Source: a virus (Duplodnaviria > Caudoviricetes). From it: a stretch of 31,961 nt of DNA. The DNA is taken from the IMG/VR virus record IMGVR_UViG_3300006105_000075, positions 1 through 31,961 of that record; one strand, written 5' to 3'. Shown one piece after another: positions 226 to 21,084 of the stretch (position 1 is its first letter; each line of letters starts with the position of its first letter). A model generated the notes under the pieces. It made no database searches. It was not told the DNA's origin and saw only the letters and a program-made list of their open reading frames with translations. The position numbers and the translations under genes are program-made.

Positions 226-660
226 ATGAAAATATACACCAAAGTAGATGTTTTATTGCAAGACATTTGCGACATATTTAAAACCCCGATTAAGCTAGTT
301 AAAGCTAAATGTAGAGAATCACAACTAGTTAAAATTAGACATTATTTTTTTTACTTCGCTCATAACTATTATCACTTTCCCCTAACAGTTACAGGTCGTG
401 AATGTGGTAACCGTGACCACACAACAGCAATAAATGGAAGGGATAGAGTTATTAAGTTACTAGATGCAGGTGATAAATTAGTCGTTGCAGATGTTAAAAT
501 TATCAAAGCTGCATTAGACATTACTGATGATAATACCTTAGACTATCGTGAACTGATAGAAAAAAATAAAGCGTTAATACAACAGATTAAAGATTTAAAA
601 CTTGCTAACGTTAAATTGAACCATGAAGCTATAAAAAGAAAATTATGCAAAATAACATAG
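226..660 (+). CDS. DnaA domain IV-like helix-turn-helix protein with C-terminal coiled coil
   Basis: R..FFYF....PLTVTGRECGNRDHTTAING resembles the DnaA C-terminal signature (SL..IG..FGGRDHTTV). There is no AAA+ domain. Confidence 0.75.
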   Translation: MKIYTKVDVLLQDICDIFKTPIKLVKAKCRESQLVKIRHYFFYFAHNYYHFPLTVTGRECGNRDHTTAINGRDRVIKLLDAGDKLVVADVKIIKAALDITDDNTLDYRELIEKNKALIQQIKDLKLANVKLNHEAIKRKLCKIT

Positions 661-723
661 TACAAGAAGTTATTTATGCAAAATTTAATGTGTAAGAAAT
701 TAGTATTGAGGATATATAATTAT

Positions 724-731
724 TATATTTG
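724..731 (+). promoter_or_regulatory. Bacteroidota sigma-A -7 promoter element (TATATTTG)
   Basis: Exact TAnnTTTG in an intergenic region, directly upstream of a structured leader. Confidence 0.7.
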
Positions 732-738
732 CAATAAA

Positions 739-826
739 TACGGATGCGACCCGTACATTAACTTATTGCCCCTTTTATTTTGATAGATGTCGCATATCTG
801 TTATTATATTAGGGGCTATTTTAATT
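739..826 (+). ncRNA. Structured 5' leader with loop-loop (kissing) pseudoknot, copy 1
   Basis: P1 TACGG(739-743)/CCGTA(751-755), loop ATGCGAC. P2 GCCCCT(768-773)/AGGGGC(811-816) plus TGATAGAT(781-788)/ATCTGTTA(796-803), loop GTCGCAT. The two 7-nt loops are exact reverse complements. A T-rich tail follows. Confidence 0.7.
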
Positions 827-833
827 TTAAAAA

Positions 834-2987
834 ATGGAAGATTACAAAGAGTTTTTAAAGTCGAAGCAGAAAACGCACATTGAAAGCGGCTTCGATGTAC
901 CCGACAAATGGCTCAATCCTAATTTATTCGACTTTCAAAAGTTTGTAGTTAAGCGAGCATTGAAGGCAGGTAAGTACGCCATCTTTGAAGATTGCGGTTT
1001 AGGTAAGACTTTACAGCAATTAGTATTCGCTGAATGTGCAGCCCGTAAAACAAAGAAGCCATCTTTAATACTTGCCCCTTTAGCAGTGACAGGGCAAACA
1101 AAACAAGAGGGCGAAAAGTTTGGAATAAACCTTACTAATATTCACATAAACAATTACGAGCAAATAGATAATATTGATTGTAATATTTATGGTTGTATTG
1201 TTTTGGATGAGAGTAGTATATTGAAGAATTACTCTGGAAGCTACAAGCAAAAAATAATTGCAGCCTTTGAAAAAACACCTTATAAACTAGCTTGTACTGC
1301 GACACCTTCCCCCAATGATGAGTTAGAAATTGGAAACCACGCCGAGTTTCTTAATGTGATGTCTTCACAGGATATGAGGTCAATGTTTTTTACAACAGAT
1401 AAAGAACTTATTAAAGGCGATAAATACCGACTTAAAAAATATGCCGAAAAAGATTTTTACAAATGGATAAGTACTTGGGCGGTAATGATTTCTAAGCCTA
1501 GTGATTTAGGATTTAGTGATAACGGGTACACTTTACCCGAATTAAACTACATCGAAAAAAAGATAGTCACTGAATCTAGAGATAACGGTTTATTGTTTAA
1601 TTCCGTATCTGTATCAGCTACTAACTTTAATGATGAACTTAGAGCAACTAAAGAAGAAAGACTTAAAGAAACAGCTAAGATTGTAAACGCATCAAATGAA
1701 AACTTTATTATTTGGATAAAACAAAATGAAGAGGGGGAACTATTGCGTGAACTTATACCAGATGCGATAGAAGTAAAGGGTAGTGATACCAATGAATATA
1801 AAGAAGAAAAACTACTAGGCTTTGCAAATAATAAGTTTCGTGTTCTTATAACAAAAAGCAAAATTGCACAATTCGGGCTAAACTATCAAAACTGCCATAA
1901 TCAAATATTCCCATCTCTAGACTTTAGTTTTGAAAGTCTTTATCAATCAATAAGACGTTCACACCGTTTCGGACAAAAACAAAATGTAAATATTTACTTA
2001 ATAACAACAGACACTATGCAAAATGTAATTAACTCTATTGAAGAGAAAGAAAGCAAGTTTATAAAGATGCAGGATGAAATGAGAGAAGCTATTCTCATAA
2101 ACTTAAAAGAAGAAATTAAAGTAAACAAAGGAGAGACTTTTATAGGCGATGGCTATACGCTTATAAACGGTGACTGCGTTGAAGAAGTAAGTAAGCTACA
2201 AAATAACAGTATAGACTATTGTTTCTTTTCGCCACCTTTTGGGGCTTTGTATGTATTTAGTAATGACCCTAAGGATATGAGCAACGTAAAAAACAATGAT
2301 GAGTTTTTACAGCATTTTAAATATTTAGTTAAAGACCTTTACAGGGTAATAAAGTCGGGGCGTTTAGTTTCTATTCACATGATGCAAAGCACTACCTTAT
2401 TAGGTCGTGATGGCTTCTACTCAATAGTAGACTTCAGGGGTGATTTAATTAGATTATTTCAAGATTGCGGATTTCATTTTCACGCCGAAAATATGATAAG
2501 AAAAGACCCAAAGACAGCAGCTATAAGAACTAAAAATAGGCAGTTAATGTGGGGGACTACAAAGAAAGATAGTGCAATAGTAAGACCCGGACTTGCAGAC
2601 TATATTTTGACTTTTAAAAAGGGCGGCGAAAACTTAGTACCTATTCAAAATAATATACCTTTCGACCTATGGTGTAAGATAGCTGAACCTGTATGGATTG
2701 ACATAAATGAAGGTGATACTTTAGACTATCGTGCAGCCCGTGATAATGATGACGAGCGGCACATAACGCCTACTCAATTAACGCCTATTGAGTGGTGTTA
2801 TTTAATGTGGTGTAATAAATGTGAAACTGTACTTAGTCCTTTTAGTGGTGTTGCTAGTGAAGGTTATGTAGCTTTGAAAACAGGGCGTAAATATATCGGT
2901 ATAGAATTAAAGCCATCATACTACGAGTTGAGTAAAAAAAACCTACTATCTGCCATCGAAAGTAATAAACAACAATCCCTATTCTAA
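834..2987 (+). CDS. SNF2-like helicase fused to a beta-class N4/N6 DNA methyltransferase
   Basis: Helicase motifs: CGLGKT Walker A, LDESS motif II, TATPSPND motif III, QSIRRSHRFGQ motif VI. MTase motifs: FSPPF catalytic motif before the SAM-binding SPFSGVAS..., and YIGIELK. Confidence 0.9.
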   Translation: MEDYKEFLKSKQKTHIESGFDVPDKWLNPNLFDFQKFVVKRALKAGKYAIFEDCGLGKTLQQLVFAECAARKTKKPSLILAPLAVTGQTKQEGEKFGINLTNIHINNYEQIDNIDCNIYGCIVLDESSILKNYSGSYKQKIIAAFEKTPYKLACTATPSPNDELEIGNHAEFLNVMSSQDMRSMFFTTDKELIKGDKYRLKKYAEKDFYKWISTWAVMISKPSDLGFSDNGYTLPELNYIEKKIVTESRDNGLLFNSVSVSATNFNDELRATKEERLKETAKIVNASNENFIIWIKQNEEGELLRELIPDAIEVKGSDTNEYKEEKLLGFANNKFRVLITKSKIAQFGLNYQNCHNQIFPSLDFSFESLYQSIRRSHRFGQKQNVNIYLITTDTMQNVINSIEEKESKFIKMQDEMREAILINLKEEIKVNKGETFIGDGYTLINGDCVEEVSKLQNNSIDYCFFSPPFGALYVFSNDPKDMSNVKNNDEFLQHFKYLVKDLYRVIKSGRLVSIHMMQSTTLLGRDGFYSIVDFRGDLIRLFQDCGFHFHAENMIRKDPKTAAIRTKNRQLMWGTTKKDSAIVRPGLADYILTFKKGGENLVPIQNNIPFDLWCKIAEPVWIDINEGDTLDYRAARDNDDERHITPTQLTPIEWCYLMWCNKCETVLSPFSGVASEGYVALKTGRKYIGIELKPSYYELSKKNLLSAIESNKQQSLF

Positions 2988-3030
2988 CATGACATCAAAA
3001 GAAAGGTATAATGTTTTGTTAAAAGTTTAG

Positions 3031-3038
3031 TATATTTG
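3031..3038 (+). promoter_or_regulatory. Bacteroidota -7 promoter element (TATATTTG)
   Basis: Exact TAnnTTTG, identical to 724-731, directly upstream of the second structured leader. Confidence 0.7.
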
Positions 3039-3041
3039 TAG

Positions 3042-3148
3042 CGTAGTGTAGCACCTACGATTAGAAACTAATTAATGGCTTTAAAAGGGATGGTGTACCT
3101 GTTTTACAGGGTGCTATTACATCATCCACTTTAAAGCTTTTTTATTTT
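3042..3148 (+). ncRNA. Structured 5' leader with loop-loop pseudoknot, copy 2
   Basis: P1 CGTAG(3042-3046)/CTACG(3055-3059), loop TGTAGCAC. P2 GGCTTTAAA(3077-3085)/TTTAAAGCT(3130-3138) and GGATGGTGTA(3088-3097)/TACATCATCC(3118-3127), capped by hairpin CCTGT/ACAGG. Unpaired GTGCTAT(3111-3117) pairs with GTAGCAC(3048-3054). A T tract precedes the ATG. Confidence 0.7.
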
Positions 3149-4600
3149 ATGTCATCATACGAACTTTACCCGTATCAAAAGAAGTTTAAAGAAAATATAC
3201 GGTCATCACTTGCCAAAAGTAAAAAGGTAATTGCTTGTGCTGCCACAGGAAGCGGTAAGACTAAAACTTTTCTTTCGATGGTTAAAGATGCTTTAGAAAA
3301 GAAAACTACTGTTTTAATAGTATCCGAAACATCAAAGATTTATAAACAAATACACGAAGAGCAAAGCGATTGCATAACCATTGGAGACGGTGTAAAGTTT
3401 GTAGATATTGAAGTAGGTAAATGCTACGTTGCAATGGCTCAAACATTGGTACGCAGACCATTTATAATATCACAGTTTCAAAACTTTGGTTCAAAACTTT
3501 TAATCATAAATGACGAGTGTCATGTGGGAACGTCTACGAAATTATTGCAACAATTAACAGATGCCTATCTTATTGGGTTTACAGCAACACCAGACTACAG
3601 AGTAGCAAAACATCTACCGCTTTTATACAATGATATTGTAATCGGAGCACAACCACAGGAACTATTAGAAGGTGGATATTTGTCACCTTATTACCACTAC
3701 GAAAGACAGGCGGCGGATTTAAGCGGATTAAAAAAAGATAGTAAAGGTGAATTTTCGGAGGCATCTCAATTTGATGCGTTTAATAAGCCAAAAGTATTTG
3801 CAGGACTTCACGAAGATTTAGAAAAGTACCACAATAAAAAAACAATAGTTTATTGTGCCTCAATAGCGGATTGTGCTGCCTTATCTCAAGAACTTAGAAA
3901 CGTTGGTTTTGTAGTGTCGGAAGTACATAGTAAAAATGAACAATCAGATATTGAACTTAACCAATTTACACACGGTCACGTTGATATTTGTGTTTCTGTT
4001 TCTGTATTAACAAAAGGTTGGGACTTTAAACCAATAGACTTAGTAATACTTAGACGTGCCACTACATCACTAGCTTTGTATTGTCAAATGGTTGGGCGTG
4101 GTGCAAGGGTTATGGATGGTAAAGAACGCTTTACCGTACTAGATTATGGCGGTAACGCATCCCGTCACGGACTATGGAACTTTGAATTTGATTGGGCTAA
4201 AATGTGGAATAAACCGCCTAAGAAAAAGAAAGACGGCGTAGCACCTATAAAAGAATGCCCTAAATGTTTTTTGATACTTGCACCTCGTGTTATGACTTGC
4301 CCAGAGTGCGGACATACATTTGAAACAAAAGAAAAAGAATACGTTGAAGGTAAGCTAGTAGAGGTCACGGAAAGTTATAATAAACTAAGGGGTAAATATA
4401 TTGCAGACCTTACTCCGATTGAATTAGCCGACTATGCTAAGATAACAAATAAGAAACCTTTTGCGATAAGAGTAGCGAAAGCAAAGCAAGATGTCCTATT
4501 TTTACAATCTTTTGCTACTGCAATGGGCTACCATTCGGGATGGGTTAAGCATCAAGACATAAGTGAACCATTAGAATTTTACAACATTAAAATTAAATAA
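3149..4600 (+). CDS. SF2 (DExH) helicase with C-terminal zinc finger (RadD/YejH-like)
   Basis: ATGSGKT, NDECH, GFTATP, LTKGWD, QMVGRGAR, and CPKC-x10-CPEC. Confidence 0.9.
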   Translation: MSSYELYPYQKKFKENIRSSLAKSKKVIACAATGSGKTKTFLSMVKDALEKKTTVLIVSETSKIYKQIHEEQSDCITIGDGVKFVDIEVGKCYVAMAQTLVRRPFIISQFQNFGSKLLIINDECHVGTSTKLLQQLTDAYLIGFTATPDYRVAKHLPLLYNDIVIGAQPQELLEGGYLSPYYHYERQAADLSGLKKDSKGEFSEASQFDAFNKPKVFAGLHEDLEKYHNKKTIVYCASIADCAALSQELRNVGFVVSEVHSKNEQSDIELNQFTHGHVDICVSVSVLTKGWDFKPIDLVILRRATTSLALYCQMVGRGARVMDGKERFTVLDYGGNASRHGLWNFEFDWAKMWNKPPKKKKDGVAPIKECPKCFLILAPRVMTCPECGHTFETKEKEYVEGKLVEVTESYNKLRGKYIADLTPIELADYAKITNKKPFAIRVAKAKQDVLFLQSFATAMGYHSGWVKHQDISEPLEFYNIKIK

Positions 4601-7063
4601 ATGAATACTACCTTTCAACAGTCAATAAAAGAATGTGAATACTACTTAGATAACGGAATTTCAATTATACCCGTAAGAGATAAACCACAAACATTTAATG
4701 GTAAAGAATATCCTGTAAAGTCTGCTTACCCTTGGAAAAAATGGCAAACAGAAATAATATCTAAAGCAGAGTTATTATATCTAATGACTGAAAAATACGA
4801 TACTATCGGTTATGGTATTGTAGCAGGTGCAGTAAGTGGAAACTTAGAAATAATTGATGTAGATGTAAAAAATTGGGTTGGCATTGATGCTATGTTATTT
4901 GCAGACATTAAAGCAATGTTTCCGCACATATTCGAGCAACTAAGAATAACACAAACACCATCAAAAGGCTACCATATATTTTACCGTATAAGCGACCACG
5001 AACCCGCAGGAAATTTAAAGTTAGCTTGGAAAGAAGATGCAAAAGAGTCAGCGATAGAGACTAGAGGCACAGGTGGATATGTAGTTGCTGCAACACAAAT
5101 GAATTACAAGGTAGTTAAAGACAATCCAATACCAACTATTACTTGGGCTGAAAGGTGCAGTATTATTGCTATTTGTGAAGGGTACAATCAAAAGAAAAAA
5201 GTAGCAGCAATAGCCCCTACAACTATATCGAATGACTATTACGACCAAAATCCATTCGACCACTTCAACGGTAGTGCAGCAGCAGAAAGCGTACTTACTA
5301 ATAATGGTTGGAGTTTATGCGGCAGTAGTAATAATTTTATTTGGTTTACCCGTCCTAATAAAACGACGGGAATTTCTGCATCATTTAACAGACATAAACG
5401 ATGTTACTACATATTCACATCATCCACAGACCTAGAACCATCAAAAGGTTATAATCCTGTAACGCTATTATCTATACTAGAACACAAGGGGGATAAAAAG
5501 AAAACTTATGCTTGGCTATGTGATAACGGATATGGTATCATAAAAGAAAAAAAGCAAAAGATATTAGCCCAAAATGCAGCCCGAAAAGGTTACACCCTTC
5601 CAAAAAATGTAAGTGAAGAAACAAAACAACTAGCAGTAACGATACAAGGTGAACTGCAAGAACTACACCCACACGGTACTTTTTGGGATTATGACGAAGA
5701 TGGTAAAATGACTATTAACCGTGAAAAACTTTTATTAGTTGCCACTTATTTAGGTTTCCGGTATTATAAGGGTAATGTAGTAAGGATATTGTCTTACCTA
5801 ATTCATAAGATTGAAGAAAGGGAGTTTCAAGATGTACTAAAAGAATACATAAAAGAACCCGATAATGAAGAATGTATATCTATTTGTAATGCTTTGGAAT
5901 CATTTTTAGAAGCACATGGTAAATATACAATGAAGCGTCTTTCAATATTGGCAGAGGATACAATATTGAAAGATACCGAAAAAACTTGTTTTAAGTTCTT
6001 TTTAAACGGTTATTTAGTAATAGATGCTACATCAATTAGCTTCCTTGAATACGATGCCTTAGAGATGCTTATTTGGGCTGAAAAGCTACAACAGCGAAAT
6101 TATAATAAAGGCGAAGGCGGAAAGTATGTAGACTTTTTGAAATTAGCAATAGGCGAAGAACACATTACACACACGCAAAAAATACTTGGTTTTCTTTGTC
6201 ACGAATATAAGGACGAAACAACGGGCTATATTATTGTGCTAACAGAACAATGTCGTGACCCTAGAGATGGCGGTGGTAGTGGTAAGAATGTATTTTGTAG
6301 CTTACTAAAACACACCACTTCTTACACTTCAAAGCCGGGCGCACAGACTAAATTTGATGAGAAGTTTTTTCAATCTTGGAACGGGCAACGTATATTTTGC
6401 ATTAGCGATGTGCCTAAAAATTTCGACTTTTCTTTTTTGAAAGAACCATCCACAGGCTCATTTATTTGGAAGAAACTATTTAAGGATGAGGTGGAAGTTA
6501 GCAACGATGAAGCCCCTAAGTTTATGGTGCAGACTAATTACAGTTATGAAGTAATTGACGGCGGTTTAAAACGTAGGATAATACCTATTGAATTTACTAA
6601 TTTCTTTACAAACGTTGGCGGCTTAGACGTTCATTATGGCTGCCATTTTCCGAAAGGATGGACTAATGAAGATTGGGCAGGTTTCGACAATTTTATAGCA
6701 CAATCAGTACAAGTATGGCTTAAAGGTGGAAAGAAATTAACTGCACCTACATTAACTGAAGGTGGATGGCTTAAACAGTTTGAACAAACATACGGATCTA
6801 TAATATTCAATTTTATTGAGCAGAATTTCAATCATTGGTGCGAACGTGTAGAAATTAGTAACGATACCTTTAAAAGTTATTTAGAAGCCTACTACGCCGA
6901 AAATAACACTCCTAAGCAATACCAGCCTTCAACCCAACGAATTAATGCCGCTATTAAGGCTTATTCTGAAAAAAAGAAAGTTGATTATAAGCACGATATT
7001 ATTAAGACTATTAATAAAGTATCTGTTAAAATGCGGATATTTTCAGTAGAAATACCTTTTTAA
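4601..7063 (+). CDS. Primase-polymerase (Prim-Pol) fused to a P-loop helicase
   Basis: N-terminal Prim-Pol motifs IIDVD, TPSKGYHIFY and ETRGTGGYVV. C-terminal GGSGKN Walker A, CISD Walker B and GGLKRRI arginine finger. Confidence 0.88.
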   Translation: MNTTFQQSIKECEYYLDNGISIIPVRDKPQTFNGKEYPVKSAYPWKKWQTEIISKAELLYLMTEKYDTIGYGIVAGAVSGNLEIIDVDVKNWVGIDAMLFADIKAMFPHIFEQLRITQTPSKGYHIFYRISDHEPAGNLKLAWKEDAKESAIETRGTGGYVVAATQMNYKVVKDNPIPTITWAERCSIIAICEGYNQKKKVAAIAPTTISNDYYDQNPFDHFNGSAAAESVLTNNGWSLCGSSNNFIWFTRPNKTTGISASFNRHKRCYYIFTSSTDLEPSKGYNPVTLLSILEHKGDKKKTYAWLCDNGYGIIKEKKQKILAQNAARKGYTLPKNVSEETKQLAVTIQGELQELHPHGTFWDYDEDGKMTINREKLLLVATYLGFRYYKGNVVRILSYLIHKIEEREFQDVLKEYIKEPDNEECISICNALESFLEAHGKYTMKRLSILAEDTILKDTEKTCFKFFLNGYLVIDATSISFLEYDALEMLIWAEKLQQRNYNKGEGGKYVDFLKLAIGEEHITHTQKILGFLCHEYKDETTGYIIVLTEQCRDPRDGGGSGKNVFCSLLKHTTSYTSKPGAQTKFDEKFFQSWNGQRIFCISDVPKNFDFSFLKEPSTGSFIWKKLFKDEVEVSNDEAPKFMVQTNYSYEVIDGGLKRRIIPIEFTNFFTNVGGLDVHYGCHFPKGWTNEDWAGFDNFIAQSVQVWLKGGKKLTAPTLTEGGWLKQFEQTYGSIIFNFIEQNFNHWCERVEISNDTFKSYLEAYYAENNTPKQYQPSTQRINAAIKAYSEKKKVDYKHDIIKTINKVSVKMRIFSVEIPF

Positions 7064-7371
7064 ATTACTAAAATTACTAAATGATTACTAAATTTTTTTA
7101 AGGTTTAGTAATTCTAAAACCTTTACTACTATTGACTTTTAAAGATAAATTACTAAAATTACTAAAAATAATTCTATTTATTGTATAAGAAAAATATAAA
7201 GAATATAAAGGATGTTAAAATAAAACATAAATAATCAATAGTATTGTTACTTTATATAAATAATAGATAGGTAAATTTTTAGTAATTTGGTAATTTTTAT
7301 ATTGAAACCTTTACTACCATTGAATTACAGCGATTACTAAACTTTTACAAAAATTACTAAATATGACTAAA
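7064..7371. repeat. Iteron array; probable phage replication origin
   Basis: ATTACTAAA at 7064, 7073, 7084, 7149, 7158, 7333 and 7353. Inverted TTTAGTAAT at 7104 and 7278, plus TTTGGTAAT at 7286. 19-bp repeat AAACCTTTACTAC(T/C)ATTGA at 7117 and 7305. AT-rich core; located just after the primase-helicase gene. Confidence 0.8.
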
Positions 7372-16278: not shown

Positions 16279-18720
16279 ATGGCAGGTAAAAGAATTTATT
16301 TCACAACGGAAACACCTAATGACCAAGGGGGCGTAATTCCTAATAGTGTTATTGATTTTACCCGTTTTAATGCTAACCCCGTAGTCCTTAAAGAACACGT
16401 TTGGAATAGCGACCCGATAGGACTATGGACTGACATACAACTAGATAGTAAAGGATATAGCGGCGTGCCTGTTTTCCACAAACTAACAGAAGCAAGTAAA
16501 GAAACGGCGGCGTTATATGAGGGCGGATGGTTAAGGGCTTGCAGTATTGGTGGTGAAGCAATATGGGAAACAAACGCAGCAGGTCAATTGGTATTAGATA
16601 AACAAGGTAACAAGATTTGTAAAGTTTTCTATCTATACGAAATATCAATAGTAACGCTTCCAAGTAATGAAGATGCTACTCAAGTAGAACCCGTTGCATT
16701 GGCAGCGAAGATATACAATAGCGAAGAAATAGACACTTTGACAAGGACAATAACAACACTTTCGAGCAAGTATTCAATCACTAATAATAAAACAAACGAA
16801 ACAATGGCAGAAGAAGTAAAAGAAGTAGAATCCTCAAAAGTAGAGGAAACTACTACTACCACACTTGCAGCCGATACAAAAGGGACAGGATTACCTCAAT
16901 GGTTGAAAGACATCATTGGCTTAGGTGGTAAAGTTTCTTTCGGCAGTAAAGAATCATTTGAAGCAGATGCTCCAGCACCGAAAGGTACTCCTGATTCTAC
17001 ACTACCGAAAAAAGTAGATGTAGGGCAACCAAATGAGCAAGATGTTAAACTGAAAGCTAAAGCTGAAAAAGCTAAAAAGCTAGAGGAAGCAAAAAGTAAA
17101 TTAGACGAAGCCACCAAGAAATTGGAAGCCGCTAAGAAAAAAGCAGAAGCAGAAGATGCAAGTGCAGAAGATAAAGAAGCCTACGAGGCTTGCAAAACTG
17201 AAGCAGAAGATGCTATGAAGGCTTGTGATAAATATGCTGCCGAATCTGACGAAGATGAAGACGAAGACGGCGAAGGTGAAAAAGTAAAAACTAAGAACAG
17301 CGCAACTAAGCCCGTTCTTAAATCCGTTGAACAATTAAAAACAGAATATAAAATGGCAACCGCACCCGTAGTTACCGCTAAAGTAAAGGCTTACGGTGGT
17401 AAGACCTTTACACAGTTGATGGCATCAACTGACGAAAGAGACAAAGCACTTATTGACAGGGCTAAGAAAGGAGTTCAACACAATGAAGTTTCAGAATATG
17501 CCGCTGTATTAAGTTCAATCATTGCAGACCCTAAGTATAGGGCAGTAGTTGATAAAACCCGTATCCTTAACACCACAATGGCACAAATGCAAGACGCACA
17601 AGTCAACGTTAACGGTAGACAAGGTGGAGTTGGATTATCATCTATTATGGGCGAATTGCAAAGAGGTGAAGTTGCTGTATTGGGCGCAAATGGTCAAATG
17701 ACTACACGCACTACCCTTACTTCTACTGATGCTGCTTTAGCTAGTCCTGCATTGAATACGATTGAATGGCTGTCTTTAGCTATCTTCAATTTGTTCCCAA
17801 CAACAAGTTGGAAAAACGACATTCCAATGTTCGGCGCACAATACACAGGCGCAAACACAGGTACTATTTGGGCTAACATAGCCGCTGCACCAACAGTATA
17901 TAAAGGCAATAAACCTAGCACTAGTGTTTATACTTATAGCGATACTGCGGTTAGTTTGGCACTTACCCCATATTGGTTACAGCCTATGCAATGGACACCA
18001 TTAACAATGCACCAACTACGTTACGACCAAATGGGTACAGGTTGGGCGCAAGCGTTCATGGTGTTAAATACTGCAATTGACGATACATTGCTTTATACAC
18101 TTGCATCAACAGTTCCTGCAAGTTCAATCGTAGCAACTAGCGGTATTAGTGGTTATCAAACATTACCTCAAACCGTTCAAATCGGCGGTTCAGCAGCATA
18201 TAACAAATTCTACTACAACCAAGCATATGCAGGTTCACTTGTTGCACCAGTATTAAATGACATTGTAAACTTAGAGCAACTTTATGCAGCGCAAAACTTG
18301 CAACTAGAAGGAGAAAAAACTACTTTAGTAGCTGACCCTATTATGATTGCATCTTTGAACAAAGACCCTGAAACCAAATCATTGCTTACCCGTTGGGTAA
18401 ATGATAACGGTGGTGGAACATTTGTTAAGTTCAAAAACACAATCTTGAACGAAAGAAGTAGAACAATCATAGTTAACCCTTCTGCAAGTAACCAAGTAGT
18501 AGACCCAACAGGTATCATACCATCAACTGCAATAAGTGCAGGTTTGAGTTTCGTACCTTCACAAGTAGGTATGGGTATTGGTATGCTGGATGTGTTTATG
18601 GTTCAAGACCCTGTAAACTACGGATATACAATGAGTGCTGATATTCGTATGGGTATTGTTCCATTGCGTGCTAACTTTAACGGTACTGCTATCCTTAATT
18701 ACGGCGCACCAAACGTTTAA
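16279..18720 (+). CDS. Prohead protease-scaffold-major capsid protein fusion
   Basis: N-terminal HK97-type protease motifs NPVVLKEH, LRACSIG and LYEISIVTLPSNEDA. Central K/E/A coiled coil with an acidic tract. C-terminal ~330-aa capsid-sized domain, followed by a terminator. Confidence 0.85.
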   Translation: MAGKRIYFTTETPNDQGGVIPNSVIDFTRFNANPVVLKEHVWNSDPIGLWTDIQLDSKGYSGVPVFHKLTEASKETAALYEGGWLRACSIGGEAIWETNAAGQLVLDKQGNKICKVFYLYEISIVTLPSNEDATQVEPVALAAKIYNSEEIDTLTRTITTLSSKYSITNNKTNETMAEEVKEVESSKVEETTTTTLAADTKGTGLPQWLKDIIGLGGKVSFGSKESFEADAPAPKGTPDSTLPKKVDVGQPNEQDVKLKAKAEKAKKLEEAKSKLDEATKKLEAAKKKAEAEDASAEDKEAYEACKTEAEDAMKACDKYAAESDEDEDEDGEGEKVKTKNSATKPVLKSVEQLKTEYKMATAPVVTAKVKAYGGKTFTQLMASTDERDKALIDRAKKGVQHNEVSEYAAVLSSIIADPKYRAVVDKTRILNTTMAQMQDAQVNVNGRQGGVGLSSIMGELQRGEVAVLGANGQMTTRTTLTSTDAALASPALNTIEWLSLAIFNLFPTTSWKNDIPMFGAQYTGANTGTIWANIAAAPTVYKGNKPSTSVYTYSDTAVSLALTPYWLQPMQWTPLTMHQLRYDQMGTGWAQAFMVLNTAIDDTLLYTLASTVPASSIVATSGISGYQTLPQTVQIGGSAAYNKFYYNQAYAGSLVAPVLNDIVNLEQLYAAQNLQLEGEKTTLVADPIMIASLNKDPETKSLLTRWVNDNGGGTFVKFKNTILNERSRTIIVNPSASNQVVDPTGIIPSTAISAGLSFVPSQVGMGIGMLDVFMVQDPVNYGYTMSADIRMGIVPLRANFNGTAILNYGAPNV

Positions 18721-18728
18721 ATAAACTA

Positions 18729-18760
18729 AGCCCCTGATGTAATAGTCGGGGGCTATTTTA
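18729..18760 (+). terminator. Intrinsic terminator after the capsid gene
   Basis: AGCCCCTGAT-GTAATA-GTCGGGGGCT followed by ATTTT. Confidence 0.7.
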
Positions 18761-18785
18761 AAACTTTTATAAACAACAATTAACA

Positions 18786-19680: not shown

Positions 19681-21084
19681 ATGGCTGAACATTTAATTAA
19701 AATTAGTGTAGTAAACAATCAAACAGGCGTTGCACCTTCAAGTGATGGCGTCATGATGATGTTTATTCACGCAACTGCAATAGGCAGCACATTCGCACTA
19801 GATACGCCGTACTTGCTTACTAAGTTAGCAGATGCGACAGCATTGGGGATTACAGCTGCTAACGATGCTACCAATGCAATAGCTTTATTCCAACAAATAA
19901 ACGACTTCTATGCAGGTGGCACAAATGACGGGTTATTATTGTGGATTCAAGGCGTAGCAAAAGCTACTGCAATGGCTACATACGTTGCAGGTACAGCCTT
20001 TGCAAACGGTGTAAGGGCAACAAGCGCAAGCAGCCCAAGCAATAGAGCTAAGATGATAGGTATATGCTATAAATTGCCAACAGCAACACAAAGCGCAACA
20101 GATTTCCCTGCCGATGTTCCAGCGACTATCACAGCACTACAAGCTACACAAGTAAGTCTATTTGCACAAGGCTATCAATTTAGCGCAATAGTAGACGGCT
20201 ACAATATGAGTACAACTGTAACACCTTCAACAATTGGTGATATTAGTTTAAAATTGTGTAGTTCTATTAGTTTATGTATAACAGGAACACAACCTAACGG
20301 TGTTAGTTCGGTAGGTTTGGCTTTGTCACGCTTTGCACAAATATCTATCGGTCACGGTTTCGGCGCAGTTTCAGATGGCAGCGTAGCTAACACAGCGTAT
20401 TTAACTAAGTCTTTGGCGATACAAGCAAGTGGCACATTGACAGTAGGTAAAGTTTACACCGTTTACAATGGTAGTGTGGTTTACAATAGTGTTACTTATG
20501 TTAGTGGAACGGATTCACAACCTACACAATTTACGGCGGTAACAGGGTTCACAACTTTCACTACTCCAGACACGGGTTATTGCGTAGAAGCGTTTGCACC
20601 AGTTGTTAATTTAACACCAAGTAACGCAAATGGCACAGGTGACATAGACCAATTAGGACTTAAACAATATATGTTCTTACGTCCATGGTTTAACAAAAGC
20701 GGGTTCTATTGGAATGACGGCGCAACTTGTACCACTTCAACACTTGCACTTAGTACGCAAGAGTATAACCGAGTAGCAAATGCTTTGAGTGCCGATGCGT
20801 TGGCTTTTTTCATTAATCAAATTGGAAGTAATCAGCCATTGGATACTAAAACGGGCGCGATTGCTCAAAATGTTCTTAATAGCCTTCAACAACAATTTTA
20901 CGATGAATATATTTCGCCGTTAAGTGTTGTAAATGGCGGCACAGGCGATTTGACAGACGGTAAATTGATTTTGACCGCTCCTAACTTCAACAGCACAAAG
21001 ACAATGAACTTTCAGTTAGACATAGTACCTACTCCAATATTGGGAAGTGTTACGGGTACTATTCAATTTGTTTCAACTTTATAA
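19681..21084 (+). CDS. Tail sheath protein (DUF2586-like)
   Basis: 467 aa. L...QYMFLR.....SGFYWND..T......EYNRV pattern, C-terminal IVPTP....VTGTI.F, and position before the tube gene. Confidence 0.8.
   Translation: MAEHLIKISVVNNQTGVAPSSDGVMMMFIHATAIGSTFALDTPYLLTKLADATALGITAANDATNAIALFQQINDFYAGGTNDGLLLWIQGVAKATAMATYVAGTAFANGVRATSASSPSNRAKMIGICYKLPTATQSATDFPADVPATITALQATQVSLFAQGYQFSAIVDGYNMSTTVTPSTIGDISLKLCSSISLCITGTQPNGVSSVGLALSRFAQISIGHGFGAVSDGSVANTAYLTKSLAIQASGTLTVGKVYTVYNGSVVYNSVTYVSGTDSQPTQFTAVTGFTTFTTPDTGYCVEAFAPVVNLTPSNANGTGDIDQLGLKQYMFLRPWFNKSGFYWNDGATCTTSTLALSTQEYNRVANALSADALAFFINQIGSNQPLDTKTGAIAQNVLNSLQQQFYDEYISPLSVVNGGTGDLTDGKLILTAPNFNSTKTMNFQLDIVPTPILGSVTGTIQFVSTL

Follow-up and report, generated by a model that had tools for sequence, protein, structure and literature searches.

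An uncatalogued family of phage leader RNAs with a putative tethered terminator ahead of replication genes

The locus and its genes

The window analysed here is an entire virus record of 31,961 bases with a G+C content of about 36%. Its genes encode, among others, a helicase-methylase, a helicase, a Prim-Pol primase, a terminase, a Mu-like portal protein, a DUF2586 protein and a tape-measure protein. In gene set and gene order the record is similar to Flavobacterium phage lotta8-1 (Winoviridae), and we therefore infer a host among the Bacteroidota. Two leaders, copy 1 and copy 2 (3031-3148), each precede a helicase gene (Table 1). Both genes had been annotated as SF2 helicases and the domains are indeed present in both, the first carrying an N6/N4 methylase in addition.

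Directly ahead of copy 1, positions 226-660 encode a protein with a DnaA C-terminal helix-turn-helix. Similar genes also lie upstream of the leaders of phages phi18:3 and phi13:2, and the protein is a candidate regulator. Behind the primase gene there is an A+T-rich gap (7060-7360) with direct and inverted ATTACTAAA repeats, which is origin-like and iteron-like.

Table 1. Features of the two leaders and adjoining genes in the window, and leaders in cultured phage records.
Sequence	Feature	Position	Strand	Basis or remark
Window	Copy 1 leader, plain-hairpin subtype	724..833	+	sequence, folding
Window	Copy 1 box	724..731		
Window	Copy 1 P1	739..755		
Window	Copy 1 P2	768..816		
Window	Copy 1 kissing strands	744..750 and 789..795		
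Window	SNF2-type helicase / N6-N4 DNA methylase fusion, gene behind copy 1	834..2987	+	domain matches
Window	Copy 2, Bacteroidota sigma-A -7 box TATATTTG	3031..3038	+	sequence
Window	Copy 2 P1 hairpin, 5 bp (CGTAG 3042-3046 / CTACG 3055-3059)	3042..3059	+	sequence, folding
Window	Copy 2 P1 loop TGTAGCAC	3047..3054	+	sequence, folding
Window	Copy 2 5' kissing strand GTAGCAC	3048..3054	+	sequence, folding
Window	Copy 2 A/U linker, 18 nt, degenerate version of family motif AAAACATT	3060..3077	+	sequence
Window	Copy 2 P2, predicted intrinsic terminator hairpin, ~20 bp	3078..3137	+	folding, z -6.7
Window	Copy 2 P2 basal stem, then 2x2 loop	3078-3085/3130-3137	+	folding
Window	Copy 2 P2 upper stem	3088-3097/3118-3127	+	folding
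Window	Copy 2 inserted hairpin (CCTGT 3098-3102 / ACAGG 3106-3110), makes three-way junction	3098..3110	+	folding
Window	Copy 2 3' kissing strand GTGCTAT at P2 apex, single-stranded in junction	3111..3117	+	folding
Window	Copy 2 U-tract TTTTTTAT, 7/8 T	3138..3145	+	sequence
Window	SF2 (ResIII/Helicase_C) DNA helicase, first gene behind copy 2 leader	3149..4600	+	domain matches
Window	Prim-Pol primase, abuts SF2 helicase gene, same predicted operon	4601..7063	+	ORF and domains
FCV-3 KY951963.1	Leader	40356		ahead of HNH gene
elemoA MT497075.1	Leader	near 20761	minus	ahead of small ORF, replication protein, primase
tooticki6-1 MN812240.1	Two elements	11590, 12625		
11b NC_006356.2	Leader	33621		
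phi18:3 KC821620.1	Leader	near 3183		by eye, model E 0.42
phi13:2 KC821633.1	Leader	near 3191		by eye, weak P1

Anatomy of the copy 2 leader

The first-pass annotation had described an octamer, P1, linker, P2, inserted hairpin, loop pair and T tract, and all of these lie where it had placed them. The TAnnTTTG box sits at -12 to -5 in Bacteroidota (according to the available part of PMC9723704), which places the predicted +1 at 3043, in the first base pairs of P1. No clear -33 TTG was seen at the usual spacing upstream of the copy 2 box, and the window shows no excess of TAnnTTTG (43 found against 51 expected). The kissing strands would pair through six Watson-Crick pairs and one G-U pair, and the 3' strand continues directly into the 3' arm of P2. 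The P2 hairpin with its U-tract lies 11 nt ahead of the helicase ATG.

Folding gives z = -4.2 for 3040-3150 and z = -6.7 for P2 alone, and none of 200 shuffles was equally stable. Taken by itself, the loop match of copy 2 is only moderately unlikely, being reached in 2.7% of cases when the P2 interior is shuffled 5000 times; for copy 1 the corresponding figure is 0.04% (n=5000). The copy 2 pairing is nevertheless beyond chance, as the evidence from the family described below removes the chance explanation.

The two copies had been read as covariation within one genome. They belong to different structural subtypes, a plain hairpin and a three-way junction, and a model of the junction type gives copy 1 no better than E 0.07; position-by-position covariation can therefore not be drawn from the pair, and the covariation evidence comes from homologues. 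A proposed pattern in which P1 loops end in AC and their partners start with GT is not a family rule (5/52 and 9/52). The copies cannot cross-pair, as had been suggested, their cross-pairing scores being 3.0-3.25 against 9.0 and 7.75 for their own pairs. Selection for insulation of the copies was rejected as unsupported, since random pairs of members score as low (mean 3.9 for any two family members), and in all seven loci with two copies the loops are non-matching in the same way as those of random members.

A family of phage leaders

A descriptor search of 88 helicase loci gave 39 matches among 1092 boxes, about half of them convincing by eye. Over all 696 loci, with 3996 promoter-like boxes, there were 121 matches compared with 5 in shuffles. 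The family comprises 113 distinct cores with 70 different kissing strands in 90 clusters; these counts are lower bounds, the descriptor having found one of five elements in the cultured-phage check. Nine of 61 clusters (false by eye), two long matches and locus L638 were left out before counting.

Stronger evidence comes from a structure-blind search, in which patterns held no pairing information and two hairpins were then picked by energy alone. Among the viral two-hairpin matches the P1 loop fits its own P2 in 40 of 56 (score at least 7), whereas 2.5% of 2838 swapped pairs reach that score. A second viral set gave 15/26 against 4.6% swapped at the same threshold. In genome contigs the structure-blind matches fit their own partner in only 4 of 38.

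Whole-subtype MAFFT alignments were out of register, and pairs were therefore counted in two sets chosen by hand (10 and 15 sequences, none from the window). In both, pairing of the kissing helix is complete (100%), with changes on both sides at 4/8 and 6/7 pairs, compared with 27-50% paired in slid-register controls; members of these subsets were chosen for kissing, so the structure-blind tests weigh more. Models built from these subsets also singled out copy 2. Model R1, built without the window, gave position 3031 as its best window match (E 1.1e-5) with filters off and missed the element with default filters, and model R2, also built without the window, gave it as the only window match (E 6.3e-5). 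R2 had no match when run on 101 genomes from the family of G001, a negative that carries no weight, since it also missed elements in two of three known-positive genomes. The second-best R1 match in the window (E 0.017) is a G+C-rich hairpin at 18716-18772, followed by AAAAC and T, which is probably an ordinary terminator behind an 813-aa ORF.

At the gathering threshold Rfam 15 has no matches in the window, and between 600 and 3300 there are only chance-level matches at E up to 10; the same search on 20 member loci gave one unrelated match (E 3.1). A lead, the 'ssNA-helicase' motif, gave no Rfam match, a single unrelated paper and no mention in the available portion of the main text of PMC5737381. 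Literature searches gave no description of such a leader; the supplements of PMC5737381, PMC10690425 and PMC8040213 may hold an unnamed candidate, and short motifs of family members are absent from the searchable supplement parts of the latter two. No RNA holder of the sequence at 600-4700 is listed. We conclude from comparative sequence evidence that the leader almost certainly represents a real, conserved and uncatalogued phage RNA family. The earlier reading of a modular, uncatalogued family with compensatory loop changes is thus upheld by the homologues, without the part of it that rested on the two copies.

The promoter and the linker are the only sequence common to all subtypes. The -7 octamer is present in 61/90 clusters, partly as a result of search design, and P1 starts at most one base from the predicted +1 in 52/90. 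Among 36 members recovered by queries lacking it, the AAAACATT linker motif is exact in 7 and loose in 21, and linker length has a median of 18 nt (interquartile 17-21). U-tract quality is partly built in, the descriptor requiring at least 6 T in 9. By apex the 90 clusters divide into 33 loop-E-like (a count inflated by one search pattern), 17 tandem-GA, 17 with a three-way junction as in copy 2, and 23 others; the labels loop E and tandem GA are our presumed assignments. A recurring chromosomal leader in Lutibacter (L330, L337, L343, L352 and others) shares the -7 box and AAAACATT with the family and has a long P1 together with further hairpins; it gave no convincing loop match and lies outside the family as defined.

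Downstream genes and cultured phages

Genes were tallied in the 72 clusters found by DNA pattern rather than through a helicase gene. The first gene is initiator-like (DUF6291, Lin1244_N, DnaD-like or primosomal) in 26, a primase in 3 and a helicase in 5; the rest comprise one MT-A70 methylase, 11 HNH/T5orf172/DUF559 nucleases, 6 other genes, 19 without a match and one cluster without an ORF. An initiator-like role for DUF6291 is suggested by PHROG matches and the annotation of elemoA. Virion, packaging and lysis genes were absent from the matches. For 26 first genes, mostly nucleases or of no known kind, an initiator, helicase or primase follows within two ORFs in 11 cases and an Erf recombinase in 4. 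The start codon lies 9-25 nt past the stem in 49 of the 51 members with an ORF. The link to SF2 helicases drawn from the window alone was too narrow, as the tabulated first genes point to replication initiation in general.

The leader is also present in 6 of the 11 records of cultured Bacteroidota phages that were examined, 4 of them whole and 7 in part (Table 1). No element was found in phi46:1, P12024S or the parts examined of phi17:1 and BI-TP1, and lotta8-1 has one doubtful match; blastn of the leaders against cultured phages returned chance fragments only. The leader thus occurs in uncultured and cultured phages alike. Little is known of how phages of Bacteroidota set the dose and timing of their replication initiators, and a common uncatalogued leader sits at this very place.

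A putative tethered terminator

Attenuation had been named earlier as one of several options for the leader, and on our model an attenuator is the most likely of them. By analogy with known leaders, it seems somewhat more probable than otherwise that the leader is a kinetic transcription valve, a tethered-terminator attenuator that sets the flow into the replication genes. Host sigma-A transcription would start at 3043 and P1 would fold at once. Kissing of the P1 loop and the P2 apex would then tether P2 and block closure of its base, allowing the polymerase to read into the helicase-primase genes, and transcripts missing the kissing would stop at the U-tract, releasing an RNA of about 100 nt. 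RNA polymerase has a footprint of about 14 nt. With this subtracted from the U-tract plus a 3' arm of 20 nt (16-18 nt across the family), the kissing strand would emerge from the polymerase some 11 nt ahead of the stop point. Stacked end to end, P1, the kissing helix and P2 would measure about 30 bp or 85 A, a distance that the 18-nt linker would have to span at about 4-5 A per nt if straight, so that full zipping of P2 and kissing would compete. By default the leader might fix the proportion of read-through and so limit how much initiator, primase, helicase and nuclease is made. A regulating input is possible, for example by the released leader itself or by a protein acting at the linker or at loop E; no conserved ligand pocket was seen in the family.

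Several features of the family are consistent with such a geometry. In 45 of 52 the kissing strand continues straight into the 3' arm, so that P1, the kissing helix and P2 would stack. Measured between the kissing strand and the final G-C pair, the 3' arm has an interquartile range of 16-18 nt, and its length is narrow in all subtypes (16.7, 16.7 and 17.5 nt). In 78/90 the + strand gives the more stable P2, which is T-rich on the 3' side only. Linker length shows no rise with stack length (Spearman -0.51), and a simple ruler is unsupported. Bending of P2 by loop E, tandem GA or the junction could let kissing coexist with a closed terminator, and the fact that a fixed valve could be built more simply counts against the valve reading. 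A classical antiterminator strand was rejected, as upstream pairing with the P2 5' arm (-4.76 kcal/mol) resembles that of shuffled sequence (-4.62 kcal/mol). The scope of a sigma-70/terminator scan leaves out the Bacteroidota-type box and long loops.

In a rather unlikely extension of the attenuator, the leader would be a self-counting replication switch that needs no ligand. The closed hairpin would free both loops of terminated leaders, which would build up as genome copies increase and capture the P1 loop in newly made transcripts, stopping synthesis of initiator and primase; in one clade a loop copy near the AUG would be captured too. If true, this would amount to copy control as in plasmids, or to an infection timer, built on a single sense RNA without any antisense gene or protein and with 7-nt addresses that are freely reprogrammable.

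The clade in question has NNGCAG loops. The P1 loop recurs 0-5 nt ahead of the AUG in 17 of 26 GCAG-loop members, and the repeat follows the loop through six versions (GT, AG, GA, GTT, AA or AT before GCAG), as seen in L216, L230, L227, L234, L627, L695 and their relatives. Such a repeat is found in 9/90 clusters against 1.2% of swapped pairs, and may form a third pairing site for the terminator apex that covaries three ways. General pairing with the start region was rejected; only this clade has the repeat. The six loop-following versions are what would be expected if the leader controlled translation or mRNA stability, P2 being a leaky or pause element whose apex pairs with P1 or with the AUG-adjacent copy and so determines access to the start region. 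Initiation in Bacteroidota proceeds without Shine-Dalgarno pairing and is tuned by structure (PMC6847099, available part), which also fits. We regard such control as unlikely for the family, however, since copy 2 has no loop repeat before its AUG, the AUG lies outside P2, and terminator-like U-tracts follow the stem.

The same clade has the seqA-CI-seqC layout of P4 (PMC4825925, available part), as would be expected of trans control of the P4-CI/IsrK type, in which P2 RNA, after its release or processing, would pair with the P1 loop or the AUG copy in new transcripts and cis pairing would be secondary. We hold this to be quite improbable. The third site is absent in 81/90 clusters, and constant linker and arm lengths indicate a cis geometry. 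Moreover, in 50 disjoint related pairs the change per site is 0.14 at kissing positions compared with 0.16 in P1 and 0.13 in P2, unlike specificity loops under diversifying selection. For the same reason, selection of the loops as a 'barcode' or for immunity was rejected; they change no faster than stems.

The slowest-changing class is the unpaired bases of P2 (25/377 = 0.07, against 0.13-0.16 in stems). These are loop-E- or tandem-GA-like and could bend the helix, and P1 sits at +1, both of which would suit a static fold where kissing and a closed hairpin together only compact and protect a terminated small RNA or bind a protein, the genes being reached by constitutive leak. This too appears unlikely: beyond promoter and linker nothing is shared by all subtypes, which argues against a fixed target, placement directly before replication genes is consistent, and the clade with the third loop copy has an alternative partner.

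A forked subtype of about 130 nt has the same promoter, linker motif and U-tract, and would form two tethers as a double pseudoknot, one loop pairing with the P1 loop (4-5 bp) and the other with the linker (6-7 bp). The linker pairing has 8 covarying versions in 13 of 15 elements, in loci picked by length (L210, L213, L229, L233, L236, L238, L244, L254, L256, L271, L273, L293 and L341). This suggests that what is kept is the tether and not a sequence, and together with the three-site clade it suggests a switch rather than a static fold. The three-site repeat and the forked two-tether form are new aspects of this leader family.

Comparison with known regulatory RNAs

The guanidine-IV riboswitch (GGAM-1/mepA) and Gd4v likewise consist of a pair of hairpins linked through a pseudoknot, the second (3') being a terminator (PMC9788692, available part). 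In guanidine-IV, kissing promotes read-through and competes with P2 elongation over 17 nt, being lost as P2 extends from 88 to 105 nt (available parts of PMC11611296 and PMC7736828). The phage leader, with its pseudoknotted hairpin pair and terminator-like 3' hairpin, likely works by a similar kinetic competition but without the ligand pocket. It differs in having no conserved bases in or around the pseudoknot and no known ligand, and in its A-rich linker motif and loop-E/tandem-GA modules. The gene context of guanidine-IV and Gd4v (sugE, MATE, GNAT and transaminase genes) is seen in 0/71 phage-leader first genes. Membership was rejected, as neither the conserved core nor the gene context was found. 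A small-molecule riboswitch of guanidine-IV type is very improbable, given 70 kissing strands in 113 cores, four interchangeable apex types, no association with transporter or metabolic genes and no Rfam match. The leaders provide dozens of natural variants of a tethered-terminator mechanism previously linked to this riboswitch, making the mechanism testable apart from ligand binding, and they could supply orthogonal RNA control parts for Bacteroidota genetics.

In P4, CI RNA pairs with seqA upstream and seqC downstream, blocking its own replication genes, and the short form of IsrK of Gifsy-1 acts on its own read-through mRNA (both from the available part of PMC4825925). The phage leader would resemble these systems, as far as that part describes them, in gating its own replication or lytic genes through premature termination, with a short RNA from the same promoter. 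Upstream and downstream complementary sites of the P4 kind are confined to the NNGCAG clade, and copy 2 has no downstream site. Unlike P4 CI and C4, the leader has a single 6-9 bp helix and a U-tract terminator, and there is no sequence or Rfam similarity.

In plasmid antisense control of replication, as in the pT181 and pIP501 attenuators and the IncI repZ pseudoknot, the initiator is governed by loop-loop pairing within its leader. The phage leader differs in that both partners are in one strand and antisense promoters are not enriched. An antisense promoter was rejected, antisense -7 boxes (consensus box only) occurring in 12/90 clusters against 11.1 expected, and being scattered. The leader does adjoin replication genes, as would an origin forming a single-stranded DNA structure or a plasmid-type antisense-RNA attenuator. 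These explanations are extremely unlikely in view of the promoter, the U-tract, 153 G-U pairs among 1497 and the + strand bias, and the iteron-like region lies elsewhere.

Orthologues and movement of the leader

Relatives of the helicase at 96-100% keep the leader, with changes to wobble pairs only. At 71%, L004 and L005 have a P1 pair changed from C-G to U-A and a P2 pair from U-A to G-U, and their kissing pair is shifted to GGTAGCA/TGCTACT with the register kept; in L002 a P2 pair is changed from U-A to U-G. Three relatives at 42-45% are without the leader. Four DNA runs from four studies list no alternative letters within 3031-3148, and the sequence upstream of the leader diverges at about 2966-2982. 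In L003 the same leader and helicase lie behind a different helicase-methylase, which has another leader. The upstream divergence and the arrangement in L003 therefore indicate that the leader travels with the gene behind it.

Positions 2966-3013 form a module boundary, where other assemblies attach different upstream DNA; some contigs depart at 3013 into other sequence, and the interval may be a shared recombination point. Helicase-methylase genes are often flanked by a leader on each side (L002, L003, L005, L018, L056, L058, L065 and the window). Leader and methylase resemble a cassette, as if inserted ahead of the replication operon's own leader.
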